From a virus, in the IMG/VR virus record IMGVR_UViG_3300017963_000254, positions 1 to 64,000 of that record: a stretch of DNA of 64,000 nt, one strand, 5' to 3'. Shown here in pieces: positions 167 through 56,006 of the stretch. The translations under genes and the position numbers were made by a program. Within the stretch, counting starts at the first letter, position 1. Each line of letters begins with the position of its first letter. The notes under the pieces were generated by a model. That model was not told the DNA's origin. It made no database searches and saw only the letters and a program-made list of their open reading frames with translations.

Positions 167-1812
167 ACCGCCGCGCGCTGATGGACGCGCAGCAGTCTGT
201 CGTCACCGGGCTGCTGAGCGAAGGGGTGACGGTCGTCTACGATGCCGAGACCCCGTACGCCGATCTCCACTCTCGCGTGATGCACGTCCGTCCGCTGCCG
301 GAGGAGGTCGATGACACGGCGCTTCTGCATCTCCGCGCCGATTGCGATCACGAGATGTGCCACCTCGCGCGATCCGATCCAAAGGTGCTCGACGCGATCG
401 ATCGGCCGATGCTCAAGCTGGTGCACAACGCGATCGAGGACGGCTTCGTCGAGTTCTGGGGGGCGTCCATGTGGCTCGGCGTGGGCGAGAACCTGCGCCG
501 TTCGAACGACCTGGTCAGCGCAGACCTGCGAGAGAAGGCGACCGGCTCGCGCGCGTGCAGGAGGACGCGGGCTATCTCCGCGCTACAGTTCCTCGTCCTG
601 GGCGAGGACGTCTCGATCGCGTGTGCTCGGCTCGGTGAGGACATCCGGCCGATGCTCGAGGAGATCGCCCAGCTGGTGCCCGAGCTGCGCCTGGTGCGAA
701 GCAGTTCAGACGGGCGCGCGGCGGCCGAGAGGATCTGCAACGTCTGGCGATGGGGAAACCGCTCCGAGCCGAAACACAAGCCACTGCGCACCGAGGGGAA
801 GGCTCGCGCGCGCGAGGACAAGGTCGCGGCCTCGCTCGCGCCGATGCCCACCATCGCCAAGGCCAGGAAGGCGGCCATCCGCAAGATCGGGTCGGTGCCG
901 GGCTCCTACCGTGCCTACGTCAACCGAGACATCGTCGAGACCGTGCAGGTCACGGCCGACCACAGGACCGGGGTGGGCGAGTTCCTCCGGTCGGTCCGGC
1001 ACGTGGTGCCCCCGCTCCGGCGACGCCTCCTCATGGAGTTCCGGTCGACCGGCCGGCGCTACGAGTACGACCACAGGAGCGGCCAGCTGGACCGCAGCTC
1101 CCTGCACAGGATTGCGCTCGGCGACGACCGGATCTTCCGGCGGGAGGTCCCTGTTCCGGTGGTCGACGCCGATGTCACCCTGCTGGTGGACATCTCCGGT
1201 TCCATGACCCTCAAGGCCCCGTCCGGCGTGCCTCGTATCCGGCTCGCGGCCCAGGCCGCCGGCGCGACCAGCATGGTGCTGGATCTGATCGGCGTCCCGA
1301 ACGAGTGCCTGGCGTTCACGACCCGGGATGGCTTCGTCCCCCCTGGTGTGCTCGAGGAGTTCGAGGCCGGCGCCTACCAGCGAGTTCGAGCGCTCCGCCA
1401 TCTGGTCATCAAGGACGTCCGGCAGAGCTTCCGGCAGGCCCGAGCCGGCTTCGTGGCCATGGCAGACTTCATGGGCTGCGACGAGAACATCGACGGCGAG
1501 TCTCTGCTATGGGCGTCCCGGCGGCTCCTCGCTCGAGCGAGACGCGGTGTCGTGCCGATCCTGATCGTCTACAGCGATGGCGCTCCCGCCAGCTCGCCCG
1601 AGGACTGTGGGGCTCTGGCGGTTCACCTCAAGCGCGCGGTCGAGCGCGCGACGGCTGCCGGTGTCATCGTGCTGATGGTGGGAATCGGGACCAGCTCCGT
1701 CGAACGCTTCTGCCGGAACACCGTAGTGATCGGCGACATAAGCGAGCTGGTGGAAGCGAGTTACAGCCTACTCCGCCGGGTTCTCCGGCGATCTCAAAAA
1801 GTCCGATTCTGA
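160..1812 (+). CDS. CobT-like vWA domain protein
   Basis: HEMCH and NAIED motifs near N-terminus; MIDAS LLVDISGSM ... IVYSDG. Start GTG160 or ATG181; the ORF-track extension to 10 overlaps the upstream gene. Confidence 0.8.
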   Translation: MVDRRALMDAQQSVVTGLLSEGVTVVYDAETPYADLHSRVMHVRPLPEEVDDTALLHLRADCDHEMCHLARSDPKVLDAIDRPMLKLVHNAIEDGFVEFWGASMWLGVGENLRRSNDLVSADLREKATGSRACRRTRAISALQFLVLGEDVSIACARLGEDIRPMLEEIAQLVPELRLVRSSSDGRAAAERICNVWRWGNRSEPKHKPLRTEGKARAREDKVAASLAPMPTIAKARKAAIRKIGSVPGSYRAYVNRDIVETVQVTADHRTGVGEFLRSVRHVVPPLRRRLLMEFRSTGRRYEYDHRSGQLDRSSLHRIALGDDRIFRREVPVPVVDADVTLLVDISGSMTLKAPSGVPRIRLAAQAAGATSMVLDLIGVPNECLAFTTRDGFVPPGVLEEFEAGAYQRVRALRHLVIKDVRQSFRQARAGFVAMADFMGCDENIDGESLLWASRRLLARARRGVVPILIVYSDGAPASSPEDCGALAVHLKRAVERATAAGVIVLMVGIGTSSVERFCRNTVVIGDISELVEASYSLLRRVLRRSQKVRF

Positions 1813-4499: not shown

Positions 4500-7400
4500 A
4501 TGCCACAGCTCATCAAAGACATCGACACCGGCGACGTAGAGCCGGTTCGCCTCATAGACACCGCGCGTTCGCGCGGTGCTTTCGTATTCGATCTCGAGAC
4601 TACAGGTCTCGTGCCCAGGCGTGACCGTATCGAGGGCATCGCCTTCTACGTTCCGCCTGACGAGCCGACGCAGACACCCGAGCTGCGGGCCTGGTACCCG
4701 TTCATCCCCGACTCGTATCGCACGTGGGTTCAGCCTGACGATGGCGGCAAGCCGATCGTCAAGAACCTCCGGGCGGCGATGCCCCAGGCCGAGACGATGG
4801 CAGCGCTCCGGCCGCTGTTCGAGGAGAGCCCGGGAACGATCGCGGTCGCCCACAACTGCCTTCAATACAACACGCGCGTTTTGCTTGCTGATGGCTCAAC
4901 CGAGCTTATCGGGAAGATCGTCAACCAGCGGTTGCCTGTATCTGTCATGTCGTGGGATGGCGAGCGGTTTGTCGCAAAGCGGGTAACGAACTGGTGGCGG
5001 AACGGCCGGAGAGACGACTGGTACAAGCTGACCCTGTCTCACAAACCCGTGGGCGCGTGCCTGTACGTTACCGGCGACCACGAGGTCTACTTGTCGAATG
5101 AGGAGAAGAGGCGAGTAGCAGACCTTCGGCCCGGCGATGTGCTGCTGCGGTCAGAACCGCTTCTCTCTCCAGCGCAGAAGCAAGTGGTGCTCGGGACCGC
5201 GCTCGGAGACGGGAGTTTCACTAGAACATCGGCGAGCGTGAGTCACTTCCTGTCTGTGGGACATGCGCCGTCTCAGGAGGAGTATCTCGACTGGAAGGTC
5301 AGGATGCTCGGGCGCATGGTCAGTTCTCGATGGGAGGAGGCCAACAATCGCGGTTTTAGCGCCGCCGATGGTCGGATCATCAAGCTGCGGACAATCAACA
5401 GTGAGCAGTTCAGTCGTGCTGCCGAGACCGTTGTGGTGAACGGCCGGCGGCGGATTTCAGAAGAGGTGCTGGAAAACCTCGACGCTCGTGGGCTCGCCGT
5501 CTGGTACATGGATGACGGCAGCGTATGCGTCCGTAGAGGCGCGCTCTCCGCTGTTCGTCTACATGTCTACGCCTACCCGATTGACGACGTCGAACGTCTC
5601 TGCCACTGGCTCGCCGAGCGGTGGAGCATCATCGCCAAGAAGAGAAAGAAGACCGATCGCGGCGAATTCAAGGGCTACTACATCGAGATGACTGGAGAGA
5701 ACGCGCTCGCATTCTCCAAACTCGTTGCGCCGTTCGTGGTCCCGTCGATGTCGTACAAGCTGGCGCCCGGCGACCGGGGCGCGTTCGTCGATTGGACCGA
5801 GCGATTCGAGCATCCATCGCCGGCGACAGTGGTCAGCGTGGGTCGTTGTGGTATGCCGTCGAGCTACAGTCGAGTAGGTTTCGATCTGGAAGTGGAGGAC
5901 ACGCACCGATACTTCGCCAGCGGGATTCTCGTCTCGAATTGCAAGTTCGATGTCGCGTTCCTCAAGTACGCGAGCGGCTGCGCTCGCGGCTACTGGATGG
6001 AGCGTTCGGCCGTCGATCAGCTGGGCAACCTGGTCCGAGACGACGCCAACGAAGACCCGGCCCAGTGGTGGTGCAACGGCCTGCTCCTCGCCGACTCGAT
6101 GCTGGCCGACTTCCTCTGCGACGAGAACCTCTACCAGTACGGCCTGAAGCACCGGGTGAAGGACGTGCTCGGCCACGAGATGACGACCTACGTGGACGTG
6201 GCCCGTACCCGCAAGCAGGGCGTGCTGTCGTTCATGGCCGACGACGTCCAGACGCTCGGTTACTACGCGATGGAGGACTGCTACTGGACCTGGCGCCTCT
6301 TCGAGGACCGGATGCGGGAGCTGGACAGTCAGACGCCCGGCAAGCCGATTCCAGAGGAGGCGGTCGACGCGCTCGCCTGGCTCTACGAGGAGGGGCTCAA
6401 GCTCAGCCCGTTCGACAAGACTCGGGCGATGGGCAACCTCGAGCGGCTCTTCTGGGGGATCGACATGAGGATCTGCCAGATTCTCGAAGAGATGGAGAGC
6501 ACTGGCATCCTCATCGACTGGAAGTGGCTCCGGCAGGTCACCAAGGATCTCGAGGAGAAGAAGGAGAAGATCATCCGGCGGATCGAGGAGCGCATCGGCT
6601 GGACGCTGAACCCGAACAGCCAGCCGCAGGTCAGCGCGCTCCTCTTCAGCGCGAAGGAACACGGCGGCCTGGGGCTCAACTCCAAGGGGATCAAGCGCGG
6701 CAAGAGCGGCGGGATCTCGACCGGGTCGAAGGAGATCGGCCACCTACGCCGGGCCGATCCGATCGTGGCCGACATCCTCGACTGGCGATCAGCTGATACC
6801 GTGCGGGCGAACTTCTCCGAGAAGCTCGCTCGGATCGCTCAGGAGGAGCCCGACTGCCGGGTCTACTCTCACTTCAACCAGACCGGGACCGTGATCCATC
6901 GTTTGTCGTGCATCGCCGGATCGTCAAAGCTCGCCGTTCGCGTAGGAAACGACGAATACAAGCGTTCAACCAGAATCTCAGAGCTGTTGCGGTTTAGCGG
7001 CCAGACCGTTACCATCGAGACGCACAAGGGGCGGGAGCGCCGGATTACGCACCTGGTCAACAAGGGTCCGGGCTTCATGTTCGACGTGGAGACCGACGAT
7101 GGCTGCAAGATCCGCTGCACGGCCGACCACCGCTTCCTCACCGAGCGTGGGTGGCGTGCTCTCAAGGACATCCGTGTCGGGGACCGGCTTGTTCGAGCCG
7201 AGTTACGTGCGGCTCCTGCGGCCGGTGGACGGACGACGCTGGGTTCTGGATCGGCCGTCGTTCCTGCGGATCTTCGTGAAGGACACGCGGGCGGTGCGCT
7301 GGAAGATCCCGGACTACGGGCTGTCGAACGGGATCGCGCTGGTCTGCAAGGCGATCTACGGCTGGGAGTTCCCGCACCTGTTTCGGGGAACGCCGACGAA

Positions 7401-9425
7401 GCTGCCGGACCTGGCGGAGATCCTGCCGGAGTTCCCGACGTACGTGAGGCGGGCGCGCTCCAAGGGGTTCGTGCTCTCGCGGGAGTCGTTCCAGGCCGCG
7501 TTCGTGGACAGCGATCTGACGCAGGAGGAGGCGAAGGAGCGGTTCGGCATCGCGCACCAGTCGATGATTCGAGCCGTGAAGCTCTACCGCGAGTTCTCGG
7601 GCCAGCTCAAGGCCAAGCAGGCGCGGCTCATCAGCGCCCGCAAGCTGTCGGCGGAGCCGTTCTTCCCGCAGGAGGAGCTGGAGCGTCGGCTGTCGGCTGG
7701 GATGAGCGTGGAGGAGGTCGCAGCCGATTTGGGAGTCGGGTCATCGCTGGTCCTGATGGATCTGCGGCATCACGGGATCGCGCAGTCGAGCGGGAACGCT
7801 TCGCACTGGCTGGACAGCTTGTCGCAGCCGGAGCTGGATGCGCTGTCGCTGGTGAACCCGGCGATGGGAGCGCTGATCGGGGACGCGGCTACGGACTTTC
7901 CGGCGATGGTCGAGACGTACCAGCGGCTCGCGGAGCTTGCCGCGCTGCTCAAGGCGAGCTGGTCAACGCTCAAGGCGTTGCAGGTGCGCGGCGAGCTGCC
8001 GAAGGCCGCGCTGACCTTTGCCGCGAACGCGCAGGAGATGCGCCTGTCGCGCGCGCTGACGGCGGCCGGGATTCCGCACACACGACTGCTCTGCTTCCAC
8101 AAAAACTGGCAAGCGGACTTCGCGTGGCCGGAGAAGAAGCTGATGGTCGAGGTCGATGGCGAGTTTCACCGGAAGTGCGGGACGACCAAGAAGCGGGACG
8201 CCAGGAAGGCGCGCAAGGCGAAGCAGCTCGGCTACCGAGTCCTGCGCTTCACGACCGAGCAGGTGGACCGGGAGCTGCCGACCGTGGTGCGGCGGATCGC
8301 GGGCGCGCTTGGATGCGCGTTGCCGCGATCACTCCGGTTGGGGTAGAGACCGTCTGGGACATCACGGTCGAGGACGACGAAAGCTACGTCGCGCACGGGT
8401 TCCTGAACCACAACAGCAGCGATCCGGTCAATCTCCAGAACCAGCCGCGCGACCGCAACCTGATCCGCAAGGCGTTCTGCGCCTACTTCGAGGATGAGCT
8501 GGAGCCGGACATGCTCCTGTTCGGTGCCGACTACGGCCAGGTCGAGCTTCGCGTGGCCGCGCACCTGAGCGGCGACGAGGGCATGACCGAGGTCTACCAG
8601 ACCGGCAAGCCGTGCACGCGCGGCCCCGGCGGCGGCGCCTGCGAGCGCTACAAGTGGTGGGAGTGCGAGAACAAGGACGACGACGGGAACTACTGCGGGT
8701 ACACGTGGGTCCCGGAGCAGTGGGATCCGAAGAAGCCCGGCGCCCCTCTCACGTGCCCCAAGTGCGGCGGGCCGGAGATCGGTCATCAGAAGCGGTGCCG
8801 GCACGTCGACCTGCACCAGCGCACGGCCGAGGATGTCGGAGTTCCGAGAAACCCGCTCGCGAAGAACGCGAACTTCGGCTTGCTCTACCGGATGGCCGCT
8901 CCTCGGTTCTGCCAGTACGCTGATCTCTACGACGATCGCGGCGAGCCGATGATCGACTACGCGCAGTCGTTGATCGACGGATGGTTCGCGGCCTACCCGG
9001 CGATCCAGCCGTTCCACGACCGCACCGAGCGCTGGCTGCGCCAGAACGGCTGGTACGCCTGCACACTGACCGGCCGGCGTCGCCGGCTCGACCGGGAGCG
9101 ATGGAAGAACGAGTACCGTGCGGTCACGCAGGGCATCCAGTTTCGCGTCAGCGGTTCGGCACAGGACATTCTCAAGCGTGCCATGGTGGACATCGCCCAG
9201 GAGCGTGAGCGGAGGATCTTCTGGTCGCGGCCAGCTGAGAGCAAGCTCTGGCGAAGGCTCCGCTACATCATCCAGGTGCACGACGAGGTCATGCTCCAGG
9301 GGCCGGCGGTGCTCAAGGACGAGACGATCGATCTGATCAACACGAAGATGTGCGGCGCGGCCACGTTGAGCGTGCCTCTGACGGCGGACTGCAAAAGCGG
9401 GCGCACTTGGGATGACATTCACTGA
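4500..9425 (+). CDS. polA: Family A DNA polymerase (3'-5' exonuclease plus polymerase) with two inteins
   Basis: ExoI FDLETTG, ExoII AHN|CKFD, ExoIII YAMED, RLS|SSDPVNLQN, motif A ADYGQVELR, motif B AKNANFGLLY, motif C QVHDE. Confidence 0.95.
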   Translation: MPQLIKDIDTGDVEPVRLIDTARSRGAFVFDLETTGLVPRRDRIEGIAFYVPPDEPTQTPELRAWYPFIPDSYRTWVQPDDGGKPIVKNLRAAMPQAETMAALRPLFEESPGTIAVAHNCLQYNTRVLLADGSTELIGKIVNQRLPVSVMSWDGERFVAKRVTNWWRNGRRDDWYKLTLSHKPVGACLYVTGDHEVYLSNEEKRRVADLRPGDVLLRSEPLLSPAQKQVVLGTALGDGSFTRTSASVSHFLSVGHAPSQEEYLDWKVRMLGRMVSSRWEEANNRGFSAADGRIIKLRTINSEQFSRAAETVVVNGRRRISEEVLENLDARGLAVWYMDDGSVCVRRGALSAVRLHVYAYPIDDVERLCHWLAERWSIIAKKRKKTDRGEFKGYYIEMTGENALAFSKLVAPFVVPSMSYKLAPGDRGAFVDWTERFEHPSPATVVSVGRCGMPSSYSRVGFDLEVEDTHRYFASGILVSNCKFDVAFLKYASGCARGYWMERSAVDQLGNLVRDDANEDPAQWWCNGLLLADSMLADFLCDENLYQYGLKHRVKDVLGHEMTTYVDVARTRKQGVLSFMADDVQTLGYYAMEDCYWTWRLFEDRMRELDSQTPGKPIPEEAVDALAWLYEEGLKLSPFDKTRAMGNLERLFWGIDMRICQILEEMESTGILIDWKWLRQVTKDLEEKKEKIIRRIEERIGWTLNPNSQPQVSALLFSAKEHGGLGLNSKGIKRGKSGGISTGSKEIGHLRRADPIVADILDWRSADTVRANFSEKLARIAQEEPDCRVYSHFNQTGTVIHRLSCIAGSSKLAVRVGNDEYKRSTRISELLRFSGQTVTIETHKGRERRITHLVNKGPGFMFDVETDDGCKIRCTADHRFLTERGWRALKDIRVGDRLVRAELRAAPAAGGRTTLGSGSAVVPADLREGHAGGALEDPGLRAVERDRAGLQGDLRLGVPAPVSGNADEAAGPGGDPAGVPDVREAGALQGVRALAGVVPGRVRGQRSDAGGGEGAVRHRAPVDDSSREALPRVLGPAQGQAGAAHQRPQAVGGAVLPAGGAGASAVGWDERGGGRSRFGSRVIAGPDGSAASRDRAVERERFALAGQLVAAGAGCAVAGEPGDGSADRGRGYGLSGDGRDVPAARGACRAAQGELVNAQGVAGARRAAEGRADLCRERAGDAPVARADGGRDSAHTTALLPQKLASGLRVAGEEADGRGRWRVSPEVRDDQEAGRQEGAQGEAARLPSPALHDRAGGPGAADRGAADRGRAWMRVAAITPVGVETVWDITVEDDESYVAHGFLNHNSSDPVNLQNQPRDRNLIRKAFCAYFEDELEPDMLLFGADYGQVELRVAAHLSGDEGMTEVYQTGKPCTRGPGGGACERYKWWECENKDDDGNYCGYTWVPEQWDPKKPGAPLTCPKCGGPEIGHQKRCRHVDLHQRTAEDVGVPRNPLAKNANFGLLYRMAAPRFCQYADLYDDRGEPMIDYAQSLIDGWFAAYPAIQPFHDRTERWLRQNGWYACTLTGRRRRLDRERWKNEYRAVTQGIQFRVSGSAQDILKRAMVDIAQERERRIFWSRPAESKLWRRLRYIIQVHDEVMLQGPAVLKDETIDLINTKMCGAATLSVPLTADCKSGRTWDDIH
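4857..5939 (+). mobile_element. Intein Pol-1 (361 aa) with LAGLIDADG endonuclease
   Basis: Starts CLQYNTRV, block B VTGDH, LGTALGDG and AVWYMDDG, ends SGILVSN|C; splits ExoII. Confidence 0.93.
6909..8414 (+). mobile_element. Intein Pol-2 (502 aa); endonuclease lies in an alternative frame
   Basis: Starts CIAGSS, block B CTADHRF, ends VWDITVEDDESYVAHGFLNHN|S; central ~370 aa are low-complexity Ala/Gly/Arg in the intein frame. Confidence 0.9.
7174..8346 (+). CDS. Nested +1-frame DUF559/Vsr-like endonuclease with HTH-like segments, inside intein Pol-2
   Basis: C-terminus WQADFAWPEKKLMVEVDGEFH...RDARK...LGYRVLRF; GC-rich third positions fall in this frame; AAGGA 5 nt before GTG7174 (alternative TTG7189). 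Confidence 0.85.
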   Translation: MSGTGLFEPSYVRLLRPVDGRRWVLDRPSFLRIFVKDTRAVRWKIPDYGLSNGIALVCKAIYGWEFPHLFRGTPTKLPDLAEILPEFPTYVRRARSKGFVLSRESFQAAFVDSDLTQEEAKERFGIAHQSMIRAVKLYREFSGQLKAKQARLISARKLSAEPFFPQEELERRLSAGMSVEEVAADLGVGSSLVLMDLRHHGIAQSSGNASHWLDSLSQPELDALSLVNPAMGALIGDAATDFPAMVETYQRLAELAALLKASWSTLKALQVRGELPKAALTFAANAQEMRLSRALTAAGIPHTRLLCFHKNWQADFAWPEKKLMVEVDGEFHRKCGTTKKRDARKARKAKQLGYRVLRFTTEQVDRELPTVVRRIAGALGCALPRSLRLG

Positions 9426-27720: not shown

Positions 27721-28385
27721 GCAACGGGACCGGCAACAACCCGAAGCGCTCTCTGGTGACACCGACGCAGGCGGCTGCGATCGGCCGGAACAAGCGTCGC
27801 TACCGGTCGCTGATCGATAAGAGGCGGCTCGCCGTATGGGAGGCTCGTCTCGCCGGCGTGCCGGTCTATCAGCTGGCCAAGGACCACGGCGTCTCCACGA
27901 AGACGATCGAGCGGGACATCAGGTGGTGGGAGGATCGGCTCGGCTACCGAGCTGACGAGCTGAAGGATCCGAAGAACGCCGCGATCGATGTCGGCATGAC
28001 GATGGCCAAGCTCCAGAAGGTGGCCGAGGATGCCTACGTCGAGTTCCTGGGGGCCGACAACGGTCACCTCAAGGCCAAGTTCCTGATGGTGATGAACAAC
28101 GCGCTCGTCAACAGGCACAAGATCGGCGCCGACGCCGGGTTCTTGCCGAAGGTCGGTCAGGACCACGAGTGGCGAGAAGAGGTCAAGGTCACCTTCACTC
28201 AGCGGTTCGGCAAGGAGTCCCCGCAGGCCGTGTTCGATGACGACAAGAGCCGGCGCCGTGTTCTCGAGGCGACCGAGGCGATTCTCAAGGAGAGCGCCAG
28301 GTCGGGTGTTCCAGTCAAGGCCCTTCTCGAGCAGGCGTCGGCCAAGCCGGTGGAAGGCCAAGTTGTCGACACTGACGATGTGTAA
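27717..28385 (+). CDS. Probable terminase small subunit (HTH)
   Basis: YQLAKDHGVSTKTIERDI; directly upstream of terminase large subunit. Confidence 0.55.
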   Translation: MSNGTGNNPKRSLVTPTQAAAIGRNKRRYRSLIDKRRLAVWEARLAGVPVYQLAKDHGVSTKTIERDIRWWEDRLGYRADELKDPKNAAIDVGMTMAKLQKVAEDAYVEFLGADNGHLKAKFLMVMNNALVNRHKIGADAGFLPKVGQDHEWREEVKVTFTQRFGKESPQAVFDDDKSRRRVLEATEAILKESARSGVPVKALLEQASAKPVEGQVVDTDDV

Positions 28386-29908
28386 TGATCAGCTACGAGC
28401 ACGGGCGTTGGCGGTCGGTTCGGACTAATACCGAGAAGCTGAACGCCGCGCTTGAAGCCGTGCGTCAGCTGACGGTCGATGAGAGGGCCGCGTTAGGGAT
28501 CGTCCTCGGCGAGTTCGAGGACACCGGCACCAGCCAGACAGCCGACGAAGCGGCCGAGTTCGAGTGGGAGGAGACGCCTCTCCCGATCGAGGAGTGGATC
28601 CTGTCTGAGTACCACGTCGGCGAGACCGGTAAGGATCTCTACCCGATCCTACGCAAGGACATCTGCGAGCTGTTCCACGCGGGCGCACTCAAGAAGGGTG
28701 GCTACGCGGAGGCCGTGCTCTGCTTGCACCCAGACACGCGGGTGCCTCTTCTCGATGGGACTGCTCCTACGATCGCCGAGCTGGCAGAGCGCTGGCAGCG
28801 TGACTCGGTGCCGTTCTGGGTCTACTCCTACGTCAACGGAGAGCTGGGGCGGGCGCAGGCGGTCCAGCCCCGGCAGACCGGCGTGGACGACTACTACCAG
28901 GTAACCCTGGACGACGGTTCGACGTTCATCGGGAACTCCAGACACCAGATGCTCCGGCGCACTGGCGAGAAGGTGATGATCCGGGACATGCGGCCCGGCG
29001 ATTCGCTGATGCCATTCGAGGTGAAGTTCTCATCGACGAGCGCCGGCGACGATTTGGACGGCTACGAGAAAACTCAGCTTCTGTCAGGAGAGTGGGCTTA
29101 CACGCACCGACTCGTTGCCAAGGCATTGTGCGAGCAGGAAAGCGAGCGGCACAGTGTCGTTCACCATGAGGATCTGGACAAGCGCAACAACACACCAGAG
29201 AACCTCACGTGGATGAAGTGGCTCGATCACTTCAGGTTGCACCACCAGGAGCGGCGAGTAGACATCACGATTGATGCGATTCGCGCTACTGGTGCCGCGA
29301 GTCTACAGGAGGCGGCGGAGGCGCTTGAGTGTAGTTACTCACGCATTCGTTACGTGCTCCAGAAGAACGGCTACACGCAGACCGAGTTCTTCGGCAACCG
29401 GCGCGGCAGACGGCGCGGTAAAGACGACCTGACGATGGCTGCCGTGCGATTGGTGATCGAGGGTGGGGCGAGGACAGCCCGCGAAGCGGCCAAGCATCTT
29501 GATCGGGACCGCTCGACGCTTCATCGGTTCCTGCGGGCACGCGGTACCACTTGGACGAAGCTGCTGCGCGGGCACGACAAGAAGCTCACGGTGGAGCGCG
29601 TGGTTGCTGCGATCCAGTCTGGTGCCGCCACTGTTACAGCGGCGGCGCACTCACTTGGTTGTTACAAGAGCACGATCTACAAGCTGCTCAACCGCGAGGG
29701 GCTTGAGTGGGCCGAACTAGGCGGAGTGGTCGGCAATCACTTCGTCGTGAGTGTCGAGAAGATAGGAAGAGGTCCGGTCTACTGCTTGTCTGTTCCCGGC
29801 GCGGGGAACTTCGCCATCAGCACTCAACACAGCGAGGAGGAAGAGGTCAGTCCCATCCATCGCTCTGGTGTTTTTTCGTCGAACACCGGAGCCATCGGAT
29901 GGGGCTGA
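28385..29908 (+). CDS. terL: Terminase large subunit, N-terminal part with intein; stops inside Walker A
   Basis: PIEEWI...LYP...EAVL|intein|TGAIGWG*. Confidence 0.8.
   Translation: MISYEHGRWRSVRTNTEKLNAALEAVRQLTVDERAALGIVLGEFEDTGTSQTADEAAEFEWEETPLPIEEWILSEYHVGETGKDLYPILRKDICELFHAGALKKGGYAEAVLCLHPDTRVPLLDGTAPTIAELAERWQRDSVPFWVYSYVNGELGRAQAVQPRQTGVDDYYQVTLDDGSTFIGNSRHQMLRRTGEKVMIRDMRPGDSLMPFEVKFSSTSAGDDLDGYEKTQLLSGEWAYTHRLVAKALCEQESERHSVVHHEDLDKRNNTPENLTWMKWLDHFRLHHQERRVDITIDAIRATGAASLQEAAEALECSYSRIRYVLQKNGYTQTEFFGNRRGRRRGKDDLTMAAVRLVIEGGARTAREAAKHLDRDRSTLHRFLRARGTTWTKLLRGHDKKLTVERVVAAIQSGAATVTAAAHSLGCYKSTIYKLLNREGLEWAELGGVVGNHFVVSVEKIGRGPVYCLSVPGAGNFAISTQHSEEEEVSPIHRSGVFSSNTGAIGWG
28721..29884 (+). 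mobile_element. Intein TerL (388 aa) with HNH endonuclease and three HTH-like repeats
   Basis: Starts CLHPDTRV; HRLVA...VVHHEDLDKRNNTPENL; ends VYCLSV...GVFSSN|T. Confidence 0.88.
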
Positions 29909-29921
29909 CCTCGAAATTCTC

Positions 29922-31592
29922 AAGGACTACTTCGCCACCTTCGCGACGATGCGTGTGCTCTACGAGCTGCTCTGTCTGAAGAACCCTCAGCACACGTTAG
30001 GGCTGGGCGCCGGCGAGCCCATTCACGTCGTCCCCATCTCTCGCACGGTCGCTCAGGCGAAGCGCGTCGTCTTCGGCGGCCTCTGCAAGAAGCTCAACCT
30101 CGCCGACTGGTTCCGTGGCAAGTTCGTCGAGACGATGGAGGAGGTCCGCTTCAAGGAGAAGGGCGTCTACATCGTCGGCGGCGCGTCACAGGATGCAAGC
30201 GCACTCGGGTTGAACGTAATTTGTGCATTGGTTGATGAATCGAATTTCATGGGAGAAGGCAAAGTCGCTACAGGAAGCGCCAGCGGTGAGGCGTATGATA
30301 AAGCAACAATGATCTACAACGCGCTCGCCCGGCGCGTGAAATCGCGCTACGAGCGACACGGAGTCTCCGGCCTGGTGTTCCTCATCTCGTCGAAGCGCTC
30401 GACGGAGGACTTCACCGAGCGCCATCTGAAGCAGGCGATGAAGGACGACGACCCGACCGTCTTCGCCCGCGACTATGCGACATGGCACGTGCACCCCGAG
30501 CCGTTCGCGGACCAGAAGTGGCACAAGGTGATGGTGTCTCCGAAGAGCGGCAAGAGCAGGCTGCTCGAGGATGGCGAGGAAGTCGAGGAAGACGAGAACA
30601 CGATCGTCTTCGAGTATCCCGATGACTATCACGAGGAGTTCATCAACGACACGGACGGCGCGGTCCGCGACTTCGGTGGCATCGCGACCGACTTCGCCGG
30701 CAAGCTGTGGATCACCAGGCGGCAGGCGATCGACGAGATGTTCGATCACGCCAGGCCGCAGTGGTTCGGTACCTCCGAGTGGAGGACCGACAGGATGCTG
30801 CGGTTCAACTGGAAGATGTGCATGGGGGAGAACGTCGACAAGGAGCCGGTGCCGGCCTGTTGTCCTGGCTCGGTCCGCCACGTCCACATCGATCTCTCCA
30901 CGAGCCAGTGCGCGACCGGGTTCTGCATGGGGCATGTGGCCGGCTCGGTTCCGGTGACCCGGCGCGACCCGGAGACGGGCGAGCAGCGCCGCGAGGATGC
31001 GGTGGTGGTCCACATCGACTGCATCCTGCGGATCGTGGCGCCAGACGGCGGCGATGTCGATCACGGCGAGGTGCGCAGCCTGGTCTACAAGCTGATGAAG
31101 GGCGGGGTCCCGATCCGGTCGGTCTCGATGGACCAGTACCTCGCCCCGTCCAACCTCCAGATGTTCAAACGCAAGGGGTTGCGCACCGAGGAGATCGGTG
31201 AGCGGCGCTTCAAGCTCAAGCCCTACATCGCGACCCGGCAGGCGCTCTACGAGGGCCGGGTGGTGGCTCCGGTCTCCGAGAACCTGGCGTCCGAGCTGAA
31301 GGTGCTCGAGCTGCACCCGTCCGGCAAGAAGGTCATCGTCCCCGCGAAGCAGTCGAAGGATCTGGCGGACGCGCTGTGCGGCGTGGTCTACTACATCTCG
31401 GAGCACATGAGGGCCGGCGTCGTCCTCGCGCCGACTCTGGGAACGTCCGGGAGCGCACGGCCGGTCGGTCCTCAATGGAGTTCCGGCGGCCATGTCGACT
31501 GGGGCGACGATGACGATTACGGTTACGATCCTCCGCTCACGTCCGATGGCTCTGGTGATGGGGGGTTCTCGTCGTGGATCATCCTCGGCTGA
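29922..31592 (+). CDS. terL: Terminase large subunit, C-terminal part (ATPase plus RNase H-like nuclease), +1 frame
   Basis: KDYFA completes Walker A; Walker B ICALVDE; FLISS; HIDLS, SMDQY, SKDLADAL. Confidence 0.85.
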   Translation, partial: KDYFATFATMRVLYELLCLKNPQHTLGLGAGEPIHVVPISRTVAQAKRVVFGGLCKKLNLADWFRGKFVETMEEVRFKEKGVYIVGGASQDASALGLNVICALVDESNFMGEGKVATGSASGEAYDKATMIYNALARRVKSRYERHGVSGLVFLISSKRSTEDFTERHLKQAMKDDDPTVFARDYATWHVHPEPFADQKWHKVMVSPKSGKSRLLEDGEEVEEDENTIVFEYPDDYHEEFINDTDGAVRDFGGIATDFAGKLWITRRQAIDEMFDHARPQWFGTSEWRTDRMLRFNWKMCMGENVDKEPVPACCPGSVRHVHIDLSTSQCATGFCMGHVAGSVPVTRRDPETGEQRREDAVVVHIDCILRIVAPDGGDVDHGEVRSLVYKLMKGGVPIRSVSMDQYLAPSNLQMFKRKGLRTEEIGERRFKLKPYIATRQALYEGRVVAPVSENLASELKVLELHPSGKKVIVPAKQSKDLADALCGVVYYISEHMRAGVVLAPTLGTSGSARPVGPQWSSGGHVDWGDDDDYGYDPPLTSDGSGDGGFSSWIILG

Positions 31593-51074: not shown

Positions 51075-54000
51075 ATGTCGCCCGCTTTAAGTGCTGCTAG
51101 CGCCAATACTTCTGCCGTTCAGCTCAAGCCCTACTTCACCGACACCGACGACCCCTTCGAGGGGGTCGAGTGGGATCGTCGCCGAGCTGTGATCCAGAAC
51201 ACCGACGGCTCGGTCGTGTTCGAGATGGACGACGTCGAGGTGCCCGCGAGCTGGAGCCAGCGCGCGACCGACATCGTCGTCTCGAAGTACTTCCGCAAGG
51301 GCGGCGTGCCCGAGACCAGGACCGAGAAGTCGGTCCGGCAGGTCGTGCATCGGATCGCCAGCGCGCTAGCGTCGTCCGGCCAGCAGCAGGGCTACTTCTC
51401 CGCCACGACTGCGCGCGTCTTCTACCGCGAGCTGGCCTACCTGCTCGTGAACCAGGTTGGCTGCTTCAACTCGCCCGTCCTGTTCAACGTCGGCCTGGCC
51501 GAGATCTACGGCATCAAGGGCGAGTCGGCTGGTAACTGGGCCTGGGTCGAGTCGCTGAACGAGGCGGTGCAGACGAGCGACGGCTACTCGAGACCGCAGT
51601 CGTCGGCCTGCCAGCCATACCACTCGCTCGTTCTGACCGAGCGCGGCCTGATGCCCATCGGTCGGATCGTCGAGGAGAACGCTGTGGGCCTTCGTGTTCA
51701 CGACGGGGCGGGGTGGACTGAGGTCAAGGCGACCAAGGACAACAACACGAAACTGGTCTACAAGATCCAACTTGCCGATGGGCGGCAGGTCGAGGCGACG
51801 GCCGACCACCTGGTCTGTGCGCACACTCAGCGCCGCAAGAAGACCGAGGAGTGGGTGCCCGTTGGCGACCTTCAGCCGGGCATGTACATGCGCGCCTGTG
51901 TGAAGGCCGAGGAGGCCGCCTGGGATACGCGCACGGCGTCTGTCGCGGATGTGGCCAAGGCGGCGTTGGCCGGGTGGCTTCAGACGGATGGCTACGTCGG
52001 TCAACCTGAGAGCGCCGCGTCGCTCATCGTCGAGTTCGAGACGATCAACGAGCAGGAGCGGAATTGGGTGCTCCAGCACCTGCCTGTGGTGTTTGGCGAT
52101 GCCCACTACAACGTGATCGACGTAGAGACCGACGATCCGAAGGTGGACTACAAGCGCATTCGTCTCTACGGCGAGCACCTGCGACCGTTCGTCGATGACT
52201 ACGGGCTCATGGTGCGCAATCCGTCCCAGGTCGTCCCGCAGCGCGTGCTGACTGGAACACCGACCGAGCAGGTCGCCTATCTCCGCAGCGTGTTCCAGGC
52301 TGACGGTTACGTGAGTCTGAGGCGAAGCGCGGCGCTGGTCGCTGTCTCGAAGTGCTCTCGGAAGATGATGCAGGGCGTTCAGCAGATCCTCGCACGGCTC
52401 GGCGTCTACGCGCGATTGCGGCGGGCCGAGGAGAAGCGCGCCGGCCGCCACGACCGGTGGGTTGTGGCCATCGCCAACCTGTCGGAGCGCGAGCGGTTTG
52501 CGGACCTGATCGGGTTCATCGCTGCTGACAAGCAGGCCAAGCTGGACGAGAGCCTGGATCTCGATGGCAAGACCTGTCCTCCCGTGCGCTACGTGCCCGT
52601 CGAATCGATCGCCTGTGTTGGGGAGCGTCGGGTCTACGACATCCAGACCGGGACGGGAAAGTACCTCTGCGGCGACGTGCTCGTCCACAACTGCTTCATC
52701 CGCTCGGTCGAAGATGACCTCATGTCGATCGCCGAAGGGATCAAGACCGAGATGCGCCTCTTCAAGTGGGGTTCTGGCACCGGCACGAACTTCTCCAGGC
52801 TGCGCGCGCTGGGTGAGCCCCTCTCGGGCGGCGGATCGTCGTCGGGCGTGATGTCGTTCCTGCGCGCGTACGACACGGCGGCGGGTTCGGTGAAGTCCGG
52901 TGGGACGACGCGTCGGGCGGCGAAGATGGTGATTCTCGACGCCGACCACCCGGACGTTGAGCGGTTCATCGACTGGAAGGTGCAGGAGGAGAAGAAGGCG
53001 AAGGTACTCCTCGCGGCCGGCTTCTCTGGAGGCATCGACGGTGAAGCCTACCGCACCGTCTCCGGGCAGAACGCGAACAACACGGTGCGGGTGACCGATG
53101 GGTTCATGCGAGCTGCCGAGAAGGGCGAGTCGTGGTCCACGCGATTCCGCACGTCTGGTGAGGTGGCTACTAAGCTCGAGGCGAGGAGGCTGCTCCGCAA
53201 GATCGCGTCGGCCGTCTGGGAATGCGGAGATCCCGGCATCCAGTTCCACGACACGATCAACAGGTGGAACCCGACGCCGAACGCGGGCGAGATTCGGGCC
53301 ACGAACCCCTGCGTCAGCGGCGATACGCTCGTCGCTACCGCAGACGGACTACTTCCGATTCGGGATCTCGTCGGTCGCGCGCCTCGGGTGGTGACCACAG
53401 AGGGCGAGCAGGTAGCAACCGACGTGTTCTCGACGGGCCACAAGCCGGTGTACCGTCTCCGCACCAAATCGGGCTACTCGCTGAAGGTGACGGCCGATCA
53501 CCCCATCTGGGCTGCGGATCGCAACTGCTACGTGAAGGCGGCCGACCTCAAGCCTGGAAACAAGCTCCAGCTGGTGGAAGGACGGTTCGGTCAGGAGAGT
53601 CTGCCCCCTGCTCTGGCCGAGGCGATCGGCTATGCCATCGGCGACGGGTGCATCAGCGGCGGGGTGCTGATGCTTACTGCCGGTCGAGAGGGCGCCGATT
53701 TCCTCGGCGCCGTGGTGGAGACGCTCAACCGACACAAGCAGCGGCTTGCCGCCAAGAGCGGGGACGGACGGACCGGACGGCCTGTCTCCGTGGTCGAGGT
53801 GCCGACCGGCTGGCGAGTCGCGACTGAGGCGCTGGAGGTAGTCTCGATGTTCTCGGCCCACGGCGTACTGGACCGGGGGTCAGAGCACAAGGCGCTCACG
53901 GACCTGGCGCTTCGGCTCGACTCGCCGTCCATCGCGGCGCTGCTGCGTGGGCTGTTCACAGCCGATGGTACCGTGAGCTGCGACGGACCCGGGGGAAAGA

Positions 54001-56006
54001 ACGCGTACGTCGGGCTCGACAGCACCAGCATCAAGCTGCTGCGACAAGTCCAGGTCGTGCTCCTGGGATTCGGTATCAAATCGAAGCTCTACCTGAACCG
54101 TGGCGGTGATGACACGAAGGCGATGCCGGACGGACGCGGCGGTCTCAAGGACTACGAGACCAAGCCCCGGCACTCGCTCAGGATCAGCCGCTCGTCTCGG
54201 GTGGTGTTCGAGCAACGGATCGGATTCTCCCCGATGAGCCGGAGGCAGGGCGCCCTGGAGGAGATGAACCAGACGGTCGGCGCCTATGCCGACAAGATGA
54301 TCGATGCTTTCGAGGAGCTGGAACCGCTCGGCACTGAGGAAGTCTTCGACCTGCGGGTGCCCGCAGCGGCGCAGTTCGTGGCCAACGGCGTCCACGTTCA
54401 CAACTGCGGCGAGTACGGCTTCGTGGACGAGTCGGCCTGCAACCTCGCCAGCCTGAATCTGGTCAAGTTCCTCCGGCCAGATGGCTCGTTCGACACCGAG
54501 AGCTTCCGACGCGCGTGTCGGATCTTCATCCTCGCCCAGGAGATCATCGTCGATTACGCGAGCTACCCGACGAAGAAGATCGCCGAGAACAGCCACCAGC
54601 TCCGGCCCCTCGGGCTCGGCTACGCGAACCTCGGCGGCCTGCTCATGCGGCTTGGCCTGCCCTACGACAGCGACGACGGCCGCGCAGTCTGCTCGGCCGT
54701 CACGGCGCTCATGGGAGGAACCGCCTGGGAGATGTCGGCGGAGATCGCCGCGAAGGTCGGCTCGTTCGCCGGTTTCCCGTTCAACCGGGATTCCATGCTC
54801 CGCGTCGGCAAGATGCACCAGGACGCGCTCGACGACTTACCCCAGTGCCCGATCCGCGACGAGGCGAAGCTCACCTGGGAGCGCGCGCTGGACCTCGGCC
54901 GCGAGCACGGCTTCCGCAACGCGCAGTTGTCCTTGCTCGCCCCCACGGGAACCATTTCGTTCCTGATGGACTGCGACACGACGGGGATCGAGCCGACCTT
55001 CGCGTTGATCACTCAGAAGAAGCTCGCCGGCGGCGGCATGATGAAGATCACCAGCGGCGCGGTGATCGAGGCGCTCCAGACGCTCGGCTACTCGCCGGAT
55101 GAGCAGCGCGCGGTGGCCGAGTACATCGACGACAACGGGAAGATCGAGGACGCGCCGCACGTCAAGCCCGAGCACTACCCCGTATTCGCGTGCGCCACCG
55201 GCAGCAACGCGATCTCACCGGCCGGACACCTCGGGATGATGGCCGCCGCGCAGCCGTACCTCTGTGGCGGGATCTCCAAGACGTGCAACCTGCCGGAGAC
55301 GGCGACCGTCGAGGACATCGAGCGGCTCTACATGGACGCCTGGAAGATGGGGCTCAAGGCGGTGGCCGTGTTCCGTGCTGGGAGCAAGGGCTGCCAGGTG
55401 CTCACGTCGGGCCGGAAGAAGCGTCAGCCGGACGAGCCGGAGGCCGAGAAGGCGCAGGATGAGCAGGTCCGCGCGCGCCGCCGCCGCCACCGTCTGCCGA
55501 AGCGGCGGACTGGCTTCACCCAGGAAGCGACGATCGGCGGTCACAAGGTCTACCTGCGAACCGGCGAGTACGAGGATGGCTCCCTGGGGGAGATCTTCAT
55601 CGACATGCACAAGGAGGGAGCGACGTTGAGGAGTCTCCTCAACACGGTCGCCATCTCCATCTCGCTGGGGCTCCAGCACGGGGTGCCGCTCGAGGAGTAC
55701 GTGGACGCGTTCACGTGGACGCGGTTCCTGCCGGCCGGTCCGGTCGTCGGCCACGAGCACGTCAAGACGGCGACCTCGATCATCGACTACATCTTCAAGG
55801 TGCTTGCGGTCGAGTATCTCGGCAGGCATGACCTGGCTCACGTACACCCGCTCAAGAACAAGGGCGACAACAACGGGCAACCGCCGCCTCCGATAAACGG
55901 AGCTTCGCGCGAGGCTCAGATCTGTCCGCGCTGCGGTGGCCTGACGCAGACGAGCGGAACGTGCAGCGTGTGCGTTTCGTGCGGGGAGACCACAGGCTGC
56001 TCCTAA
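51075..56006 (+). CDS. nrdJ: Class II (adenosylcobalamin) ribonucleotide reductase with two inteins
   Basis: FNSPVLFN, PQSSA|CFI, GSGTG, TNP|CGE, ACNLASLNL, LAPTGT, ISKTCN, C-terminal TSCPD-like domain and Zn ribbon. Confidence 0.95.
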   Translation: MSPALSAASANTSAVQLKPYFTDTDDPFEGVEWDRRRAVIQNTDGSVVFEMDDVEVPASWSQRATDIVVSKYFRKGGVPETRTEKSVRQVVHRIASALASSGQQQGYFSATTARVFYRELAYLLVNQVGCFNSPVLFNVGLAEIYGIKGESAGNWAWVESLNEAVQTSDGYSRPQSSACQPYHSLVLTERGLMPIGRIVEENAVGLRVHDGAGWTEVKATKDNNTKLVYKIQLADGRQVEATADHLVCAHTQRRKKTEEWVPVGDLQPGMYMRACVKAEEAAWDTRTASVADVAKAALAGWLQTDGYVGQPESAASLIVEFETINEQERNWVLQHLPVVFGDAHYNVIDVETDDPKVDYKRIRLYGEHLRPFVDDYGLMVRNPSQVVPQRVLTGTPTEQVAYLRSVFQADGYVSLRRSAALVAVSKCSRKMMQGVQQILARLGVYARLRRAEEKRAGRHDRWVVAIANLSERERFADLIGFIAADKQAKLDESLDLDGKTCPPVRYVPVESIACVGERRVYDIQTGTGKYLCGDVLVHNCFIRSVEDDLMSIAEGIKTEMRLFKWGSGTGTNFSRLRALGEPLSGGGSSSGVMSFLRAYDTAAGSVKSGGTTRRAAKMVILDADHPDVERFIDWKVQEEKKAKVLLAAGFSGGIDGEAYRTVSGQNANNTVRVTDGFMRAAEKGESWSTRFRTSGEVATKLEARRLLRKIASAVWECGDPGIQFHDTINRWNPTPNAGEIRATNPCVSGDTLVATADGLLPIRDLVGRAPRVVTTEGEQVATDVFSTGHKPVYRLRTKSGYSLKVTADHPIWAADRNCYVKAADLKPGNKLQLVEGRFGQESLPPALAEAIGYAIGDGCISGGVLMLTAGREGADFLGAVVETLNRHKQRLAAKSGDGRTGRPVSVVEVPTGWRVATEALEVVSMFSAHGVLDRGSEHKALTDLALRLDSPSIAALLRGLFTADGTVSCDGPGGKNAYVGLDSTSIKLLRQVQVVLLGFGIKSKLYLNRGGDDTKAMPDGRGGLKDYETKPRHSLRISRSSRVVFEQRIGFSPMSRRQGALEEMNQTVGAYADKMIDAFEELEPLGTEEVFDLRVPAAAQFVANGVHVHNCGEYGFVDESACNLASLNLVKFLRPDGSFDTESFRRACRIFILAQEIIVDYASYPTKKIAENSHQLRPLGLGYANLGGLLMRLGLPYDSDDGRAVCSAVTALMGGTAWEMSAEIAAKVGSFAGFPFNRDSMLRVGKMHQDALDDLPQCPIRDEAKLTWERALDLGREHGFRNAQLSLLAPTGTISFLMDCDTTGIEPTFALITQKKLAGGGMMKITSGAVIEALQTLGYSPDEQRAVAEYIDDNGKIEDAPHVKPEHYPVFACATGSNAISPAGHLGMMAAAQPYLCGGISKTCNLPETATVEDIERLYMDAWKMGLKAVAVFRAGSKGCQVLTSGRKKRQPDEPEAEKAQDEQVRARRRRHRLPKRRTGFTQEATIGGHKVYLRTGEYEDGSLGEIFIDMHKEGATLRSLLNTVAISISLGLQHGVPLEEYVDAFTWTRFLPAGPVVGHEHVKTATSIIDYIFKVLAVEYLGRHDLAHVHPLKNKGDNNGQPPPPINGASREAQICPRCGGLTQTSGTCSVCVSCGETTGCS
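51609..52691 (+). mobile_element. Intein NrdJ-1 (361 aa), LAGLIDADG
   Basis: Starts CQPYHSLV, ATADH, LAGWLQTDG, SVFQADG, ends DVLVHN|C. Confidence 0.93.
53310..54404 (+). mobile_element. Intein NrdJ-2 (365 aa), LAGLIDADG
   Basis: Starts CVSGDTLV, VTADH, IGYAIGDG, RGLFTADG, ends GVHVHN|C. Confidence 0.93.

Follow-up and report, generated by a model that had tools for sequence, protein, structure and literature searches.

The large terminase gene (terL) in IMG/VR virus record IMGVR_UViG_3300017963_000254 carries, within its Walker A motif (P-loop), a frame-breaking insert of 16 nt that begins with a stop codon, and the question raised by this locus is what the insert is and how the conserved protein could still be made. 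The stretch analysed (hereafter the window) comprises 64,000 nt, i.e., 64 kb out of the 74.5-kb record, and has a G+C content of 65%; coordinates refer to the window, and the features listed for it lie on the plus strand. The explanation preferred here, to which about an even chance is given, is that the 16 nt are the stop-led coding gap of a mobile cassette which consists of an HNH intein plus the gap and is inserted into the single terL gene, with a putative role in immunity and a putative ribosome hop. An earlier reading of the same DNA, made without database searches (the sequence-only reading), is partly supported; it did not mention the link between the gap and the HNH intein ending 21 nt upstream, which is the key to the nature of the gap.

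The closest complete relative, G001, is a jumbo phage of 275,101 bp with terminal repeats, with which the window is collinear at ~80-85% nucleotide identity; one TerL copy was found in this complete 275-kb relative and one in the record of the window. The relatives L005, L006 and L013 (92% amino acid identity) encode an uninterrupted TerL of 677 aa reading ...AEAVLTGAIGWGKDYFAT..., and the Walker A stretch of close relatives is unbroken (TGAIGWGKDYFA). Against these three, the TerL of the window is interrupted twice, by the intein between Leu and Thr and by the 16 nt between Gly and Lys. The first open reading frame (ORF1; 28385..29908, 507 aa) consists, in this order, of 112 TerL residues, the 388-aa intein, TGAIGWG and the stop TGA. 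The N-extein (residues 1-112, ending in ...GGYAEAVL; 28385..28720) showed an identity of 88% to residues 1-112 of the L005 TerL, and the C-extein begins with seven codons for TGAIGWG (29885..29905), which cover Walker A through its last Gly and end in GGC 29903-05, the putative take-off codon. The gap (29906..29921) has the sequence TGACCTCGAAATTCTC, the stop TGA (29906-08) being its first codon, and is without counterpart in L005, L006 and L013; the junction at 29888-29933 reads GGA GCC ATC GGA TGG GGC, TGACCTCGAAATTCTC, AAG GAC TAC TTC. After the ORF1 stop the TerL frame restarts at AAG 29922 in the +1 frame, and the remainder of TerL (KDYFATF..., 556 codons from the Walker A Lys to the stop; 29922..31592) showed an identity of 93% to residues 120-677 of the L005 TerL. 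Because C is found at both 29905 and 29921, the cut position can shift by one base. The uninterrupted TerL of the relatives thus confirms the placement of the 16 nt exactly between Gly and Lys in the sequence-only reading, and its statement that deletion of exactly these 16 nt restores the P-loop agrees with L005, L006 and L013 as well as with the spacing between the Walker A Lys and NPQ, which is 19 residues here and in distant terminases.

A 603-nt Logan contig covering 29473-30075 was found with zero differences, insert included, in two runs of separate studies (sediment 2018 and seawater 2021); the sediment run may be the window's own source sample, and the seawater run is independent. The gap is real: since an identical insert is present in two metagenomes of different studies, the misassembly considered in the sequence-only reading is excluded. 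The intein-less, gap-less relative was present as a separate allele in three runs (allele presence was read from Logan contigs, a level at which minor alleles might not show). Neither an RNA run nor a proteome containing this phage was found among the sequencing runs listed. Regarding the Logan unitig across the intein 3' part and the gap, the same start and stop points were seen in both runs, as was a depth of 4.8 across the gap versus 7.1-7.8 in the flanks; a depth about one third below that of the neighbours may indicate a second allele of the 29473-30075 stretch in the population. The gap 16-mer occurs only once in the window. The exact pattern of insert plus flanks had no further match among viral contigs, a degenerate insert pattern yielded 13 loci, all of them chance matches, and neither a search for the insert in genome contigs nor a megablast comparison with phage records yielded a match.

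The gene is a terminase gene, and terL remains under purifying selection (dN/dS of 0.09 versus L005). The TerL C part (29922..31592) matched annotated phage terminases in tblastn with an identity of 31% across 91% of its length (E 7e-60), Pfam, PHROG and NCBIfam yielded no match for it, and sequence and profile searches of the PDB were also negative. An AF2 model of the relative's TerL shows the two-domain fold of ATPase and nuclease with Walker A at strand 1/helix 1 (strand 107-114, GWGK loop, then helix 120-136), and its top Foldseek matches were the large terminases of HK97, Sf6, D6E and T4 (E 9e-14 to 1e-9). In a protein-level comparison with G001 no other conserved gene of the 64-kb window was frame-broken, and no genome-wide recoding system was found in the window; no tRNA genes were found in it, and no suppressor is among the relative's 35 tRNA genes.

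The intein (388 aa, CLHPDTRV ... GVFSSN; 28721..29884) lies between Leu and Thr of ...AVL/TGAIGWGK and contains an HNH nuclease and several helix-turn-helix (HTH) modules. Its HNH catalytic region comprises residues 239-286 (29099..29242), with the Pfam HNH_3 match at 239-278. An intein is missing at exactly this point in L005 and L006. The Pfam matches were all weak, namely Intein_splicing (23.4 bits, below the cut-off of 35.8), HNH_3 (19.7, sub-threshold versus a cut-off of 24.8), NUMOD1 and HTH families; NCBIfam intein_Nterm was also matched, and the PHROG 59 HNH endonuclease match had an E of 3e-13. In an alignment of 16 homologues (A2), no variation is seen at Cys1, the His of block B, the C-terminal Asn or Thr+1, and equally invariant are H260, H261, N269, N273, H282 and H286 (HH...N...N...H...H). 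The intein accordingly has the features of class 1 (C113, SRHQM, ...SSN500, T501, and insertion at a conserved site that is empty in L005), with Ser and not His as the penultimate residue, and its HNH motif is intact, the catalytic residues being invariant in A2.

The gap is linked to the HNH intein. With ORF1 as query, ~25 cluster representatives were obtained whose intein occupies this codon; they belong to the GWGKD/RWGKD clade, are 40-60% identical to ORF1 and come from contigs of up to 200 kb; the tally comprises 27 representatives, 20 with an HNH domain and seven mini-inteins without nuclease. All 20 HNH-intein alleles have a frame break within the seven post-intein codons: 17 end exactly after ...WG, two after ...TGAI and one continues out of frame (stop positions were judged by ORF end; gap DNA was read in the window, L014 and L041). 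Among the mini-inteins, three of seven are broken and four are contiguous (...GWGKDY...), so that the insert accompanies the nuclease and can disappear when the nuclease has been lost; Fisher's test for the association of HNH domain and frame break gave a p of 0.002 without correction for phylogeny. Among the longer proteins of the GWGKD/RWGKD clade, none was found to be a contiguous TerL containing an HNH intein. The broken alleles are located on contigs of 94-200 kb, and their C-terminal ORFs (541-570 aa) are intact. Intein and extein divergence are correlated with r of only 0.02-0.25, compared with 0.79 for extein versus extein. The 5' part of the intein is identical in 239 of 240 nt between the window and L014, the exteins of which are only ~85% identical to each other, and the L014 exteins are virtually identical to those of L005. 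The decoupling of intein from extein divergence, together with the near-identical 5' part shared with L014, indicates that the cassette moves between co-occurring phages and takes the gap with it. The sequence-only reading had listed a mobile-element scar among its alternatives, which stands in so far as the gap is part of the intein cassette, although its wording comes close only.

If a selfish cassette had simply inactivated terL, the genome would be defective or helper-dependent, or the break very recent. A 92%-identical relative with intact TerL does co-occur in run X2, the intein-bearing allele looks minor in the relative's population (depth of ~3.4 versus 22 in X5), the L014 insertion must be recent given its L005-like exteins, and the lower unitig depth across the gap in both runs points the same way. 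Such a null allele is nevertheless very unlikely, as the same sequence was assembled in two studies three years apart, run X1 shows no relative at the locus, and the stop after WG recurs across intein lineages that are 52-64% identical, on many large contigs, with downstream ORFs that are intact and HNH residues that do not vary. Had the cassette abolished packaging, diversification on this scale would have been impossible.

The sequence-only reading had proposed looking for the same gap in related TerL genes, and stop-led gaps are indeed found at the same junction in L014 and L041. The L014 allele reads GGT, TGAGC, AAG (gap of 5 nt) and the L041 allele, on a 203.5-kb contig, GGT, TGAATGGA, AAG (gap of 8 nt), both read from DNA; for the pair P0012/P0039 the allele GGY, TAGGN, AAG (gap of 5 nt) was deduced from the proteins. 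The intein of L041 is a different, LAGLIDADG-like one, located two codons further on. The gap lengths of 16, 5 and 8 nt have no common frameshift direction; in every allele, a stop follows the Gly codon immediately and AAG follows the gap. AAG is preceded by CUC (Leu) in the window, by AGC (Ser) in L014 and by a Gly codon in L041 and the deduced P0012/P0039 allele; a landing codon matching the take-off codon is thus present in the deduced allele (GGY/GGN), nearly so in L041 (GGU/GGA), and absent from L014 (AGC).

A gap at this junction is also known from the g6/g7 terminase of phiHau3 (Smith et al. 2013; PMC10732093), the Streptomyces phage case that the sequence-only reading had referred to correctly; its DNA was read and has the same GWG/KD junction (UGG GGC, gap, AAG GAC), with a frame-breaking gap of 10 nt and an identical nascent ...GWG. 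With UUA replaced by a stop, mass spectrometry in E. coli revealed the phiHau3 junction peptide (PMC10732093), which shows that this junction can be bypassed. The phiHau3 case differs from the window in having a rare UUA instead of a stop, a matched landing codon (GGC to GGU), no intein, and a local hairpin of -13 kcal/mol; the role proposed for it is the sensing of the host growth phase. Since the phiHau3 TerL has no detectable similarity to the TerL of the window, the shared site is convergent.

At the RNA level the gap is paired into a hairpin (29837..29921), which consists of a 5' arm at 29837-29873 (intein codons EEEVSPIHRSGVF), a loop at 29874-29880 and a 3' arm at 29881-29921; the latter comprises the last base of the Ser codon before Asn, the N-T-G-A-I-G-W-G codons and then the gap. 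A repeat search gave the inverted repeats I1 and I2 (29897-29912 complementary to 29843-29858, and 29882-29895 to 29859-29872), and the main stem spans 29843-29912. The fold of 29835-29925 has a minimum free energy of -56 kcal/mol (z -8.3), and none of 200 shuffles was as stable. From within the gap, UGACCUC adds seven Watson-Crick pairs to the main stem (-35.4 to -51.8 kcal/mol) and UUCUC pairs with GAGGA 29837-41, which places the base of the helix at 29921, adjacent to AAG. In total 12 of the 16 gap bases are paired, their partner being the upstream intein-coding sequence. The mini-hairpin of GGGG with CCUC seen in the sequence-only reading is replaced by this structure, in which CCUC pairs with GAGG 60 nt upstream in a hairpin of 30 bp. 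The putative take-off codon GGC also lies inside the hairpin, the geometry of which is unlike that of the T4 stem-loops. In L041 all eight gap bases are paired with upstream intein codons, the L014 hairpin (z -3.3) ends inside the stop codon, and three gap-less intein alleles gave a z of -1.0 to -1.4. No structure 3' of the gap was found in the fold of 29870-29960 (z +1.6), and no promoter-like or terminator-like site near the gap.

The intein linker before block G is kept as ...(K)E(A)NPTxRSGV... in many homologues (P0006-P0026). At 29843-29873 of the window the linker codons are, nearly codon for codon, the reverse complement of the P-loop codons N-T-G-A-I-G-W, so that the conservation of the linker peptide may reflect RNA pairing.

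The position of the gap at the base of a very stable hairpin would also suit an excision of the 16 nt from the mRNA, either by an endonuclease and a ligase acting on the hairpin or by a ribozyme, and phage-borne RtcB-type ligases are common. This is extremely unlikely: no known splicing system removes pieces as short as the 5- and 8-nt gaps, intron-like ends are missing, and no enzyme candidate was identified. Rfam gave no match above noise and only sub-threshold matches to miRNA hairpins, which are due to the hairpin itself; without an Rfam family the micro-intron suggested in the sequence-only reading falls away, and nothing supports its DNA-level switch gating packaging.

A simple frameshift on the G run would require a +1 or -2 slip at UGG-GGC-UGA, leaving five or six extra residues, (A)DLEIL, before Lys (the five residues calculated for a +1 slip in the sequence-only reading hold), and a -1 slip in the 5- and 8-nt alleles, leaving two or three. 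All alleles have a GGGG run followed by a stop (a 'shifty stop'), a sequence similar to a Shine-Dalgarno (SD) element, GGAUGGGG, is located just upstream (-6 kcal/mol versus the anti-SD), and a -2 slip to GGG would retain two of three base pairs. The programmed +1 frameshift of prfB (RF2) takes place at CUU UGA C with an upstream SD, and the window resembles it in having the stop UGA-C in the A site after a G-rich SD-like stretch; in prfB, however, one base and not 16 is skipped, the P-site tRNA re-pairs (in the window GGC would re-pair poorly with GCU), and the product is the native protein. Slippage would put insertions of variable length into an otherwise length-invariant P-loop, and if such insertions were tolerated, stop-less in-frame inserts would be predicted, which none of the four gaps read or deduced represents. 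As known from upstream attenuator hairpins, on which this argument is based, an upstream hairpin that refolds favours forward movement, against the backward slip needed by the 5- and 8-nt alleles. The phiHau3 authors rejected a frameshift at the same junction on the same grounds, and it is decidedly unlikely here.

Termination at the UGA could alternatively be followed by the start of a second polypeptide nearby, with halves that assemble non-covalently as in T4 gp39/gp60 and split NrdA, both products of homing-endonuclease insertion. In the 5- and 8-nt alleles the start could be a GUG or UUG that overlaps the stop, and the window offers AUU 29916 as its sole candidate. In L014 and L041 a UUGA makes start and stop overlap, and a GUG is present in the TerL frame four codons ahead of the Lys; the predicted P0039 protein reads MGLGKDYF..., and homing endonucleases are known to divide genes into working halves. 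In the window, however, no AUG, GUG or UUG in the TerL frame is nearer than 18 codons upstream, that GUG is without an SD, AUG 29899 is in the wrong frame, and a restart site would be buried by the hairpin. A nick plus extra residues inside the phosphate-binding loop is also hard to square with ATPase function, and length variation of G-x4-G-K is not seen in the family. A split terminase is therefore considered unlikely.

With the stop-led gap of an HNH-intein cassette as the preferred explanation, full-length TerL is probably made only if ribosomes skip the 16 nt, and they probably hop over them. As in bypassing, exact removal of the non-coding insert restores the conserved protein, and the stop UGA 29906-08 stands in the A site directly after GGC, and the stops of L014 and L041 directly after GGT. 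A ribosome would pause with peptidyl-tRNA-Gly on GGC and the poorly read UGA-C, a slow termination context, in the A site, while the upstream arm of the 30-bp hairpin would already be free behind it. The hairpin could then zip with the exiting P-loop and gap bases and pull the mRNA ~16 nt forward, upon which decoding would restart at AAG; protein splicing would subsequently excise the intein to give ...AVL-TGAIGWG-KDYFA....

The model for this is gene 60/mobA of phage T4. Modular HNH/HTH nucleases (I-HmuI and relatives) bind one flank and can cut alleles that already bear the element. By analogy with the T4 cassette, the gap most likely disrupts the downstream part of the nuclease target, which would make the cassette immune to its own nuclease. 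The T4 bypass insert is located ~20 nt from the nick site and protects against the endonuclease of its cassette (bioRxiv 10.1101/2022.08.31.505936, Manning & Atkins), and forward bypassing has been proposed to be driven by pairing of the exiting mRNA (bioRxiv 10.1101/2024.12.09.627546, Wills et al.). Both systems have an untranslated, stop-led insert that immediately follows a Gly codon within a motif that is essential and highly conserved; the insert is ~20 nt away from the point where a homing endonuclease is inserted or nicks, moves with it as one cassette, persists alongside the nuclease and is sometimes missing where the nuclease has been lost. mRNA structure is part of the T4 mechanism and may be so here. 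The window differs from T4 in its host gene (terL versus a topoisomerase gene), in a gap of 16 nt (5 and 8 nt in the sister alleles) against 50 nt, in the location of the nuclease within an intein, whereby protein splicing is also required, in a hairpin formed by the gap and the upstream coding sequence and not within the gap, and in having neither a matched landing codon nor an SD in the gap; the case of the window is known from sequence alone.

Several observations weigh against this explanation. The codon CUC before AAG cannot re-pair with tRNA-Gly, the gap contains no GGN triplet, in agreement with the sequence-only reading, which had noted that no matched landing codon is present, and the first GGN downstream (GGA 29924-26) resumes in the wrong frame. 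Within the gap no SD-like element was found, i.e., no anti-SD duplex of <= -4 kcal/mol within 29906-29916. More distant HNH inteins at the same site (L016, L018, L019 and P0116) are without a gap, a more distant clade with a GSGKT loop includes contiguous TerL with an HNH intein, the alleles P0020 and P0023 continue out of frame without an immediate stop, and gap DNA was read in three alleles only (window, L014 and L041). The complementarity between gap and upstream sequence could, moreover, be a footprint of the origin of the insert by fold-back repair and not a signal; such an origin fits partly, TGACCTC being templated by GAGGTCA and GAAA and TTCTC being no straight copy. Two other take-off/landing pairs were rejected, AUC to AUU, which would delete GWG, and GGA to GGA, which is in the wrong frame. 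As a matched landing codon is a defining feature of gene-60-type bypassing, the locus is not classified as a member of that group and is only likened to it in its working.

Inteins in the P-loop of phage terminases, such as those of RcMenchie and L016-L019, share with the window the same hot spot and an ordinary Cys1...Asn/Thr+1 intein, with different inteins in neighbouring codons, but their genes are contiguous. In the paper library that was searched, no description of an intein followed by a coding gap was found. In the terminase of the Rhodobacter phage RcMenchie (L001:46-3186, 1046 aa) the intein is located directly after the Walker A Lys (GAIGGGK/RLAVDTPIL...VTHN/TTIANLG) and seems to start with Arg-Leu and not with Cys or Ser, which may represent an unusual class or a boundary off by one residue. 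The distant TerL at L016:4067-4186 has two inteins in one P-loop, one at the AVL/TG site and one right after GIGK (K/CLVGETEIY...). An L005-type TerL (L012:3-2855; Ga0180434_10045542) has a different intein at Walker B (...ALVDE/C...VVHN/SNFMGEG), the middle of which is Ala/Gly/Arg-rich in frame, with a 339-aa ORF nested in another frame (427..1446).

A further-reaching proposal, which is offered tentatively and is rather doubtful as a whole, is that one cassette encodes two recodings, namely a hop that lands without codon-anticodon re-pairing at a position set by the end of the zipping helix, and then protein splicing. The untranslated insert would be the immunity determinant, the cassette would spread among jumbo phages, and the linker (...NPTxRSGV...) would be shaped partly by pairing with the P-loop.

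Four more window-specific blocks of ~1.1 kb each (4857-5941, 7172-8332, 51612-52690 and 53314-54404), recognized as blastn breaks, are without counterpart in the collinear G001; they are probably further inteins or homing-endonuclease genes, and at least one corresponds to a polymerase intein. The tRNA set of G001 (~35; L114 = G001:6000-17500, and L115) includes Gly-UCC, Gly-CCC, Gly-GCC and both Lys tRNAs, and ARAGORN also predicts a tmRNA with the tag ANAPVRLAA in G001, in a region which the record of the window does not reach.

Natural translational bypassing is known from very few cases, i.e., T4 gene 60 and its homologues, the byps of yeast mitochondria and the candidate phiHau3. In the uncultured jumbo phage family to which the window belongs, stop-led gaps of 5-16 nt persist in the best-conserved loop of an essential motor, where they are linked with an intein nuclease and with RNA hairpins. 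If ribosomes hop over them, these gaps would be short, varied and portable bypass cassettes, one of them without a matched landing codon, with which the needs of take-off and landing could be probed. With its putative role in immunity, the arrangement would be a second and independent case in which an endonuclease is combined with an untranslated immunity insert, and would account for the misannotation of such genes as two ORFs or as pseudogenes.

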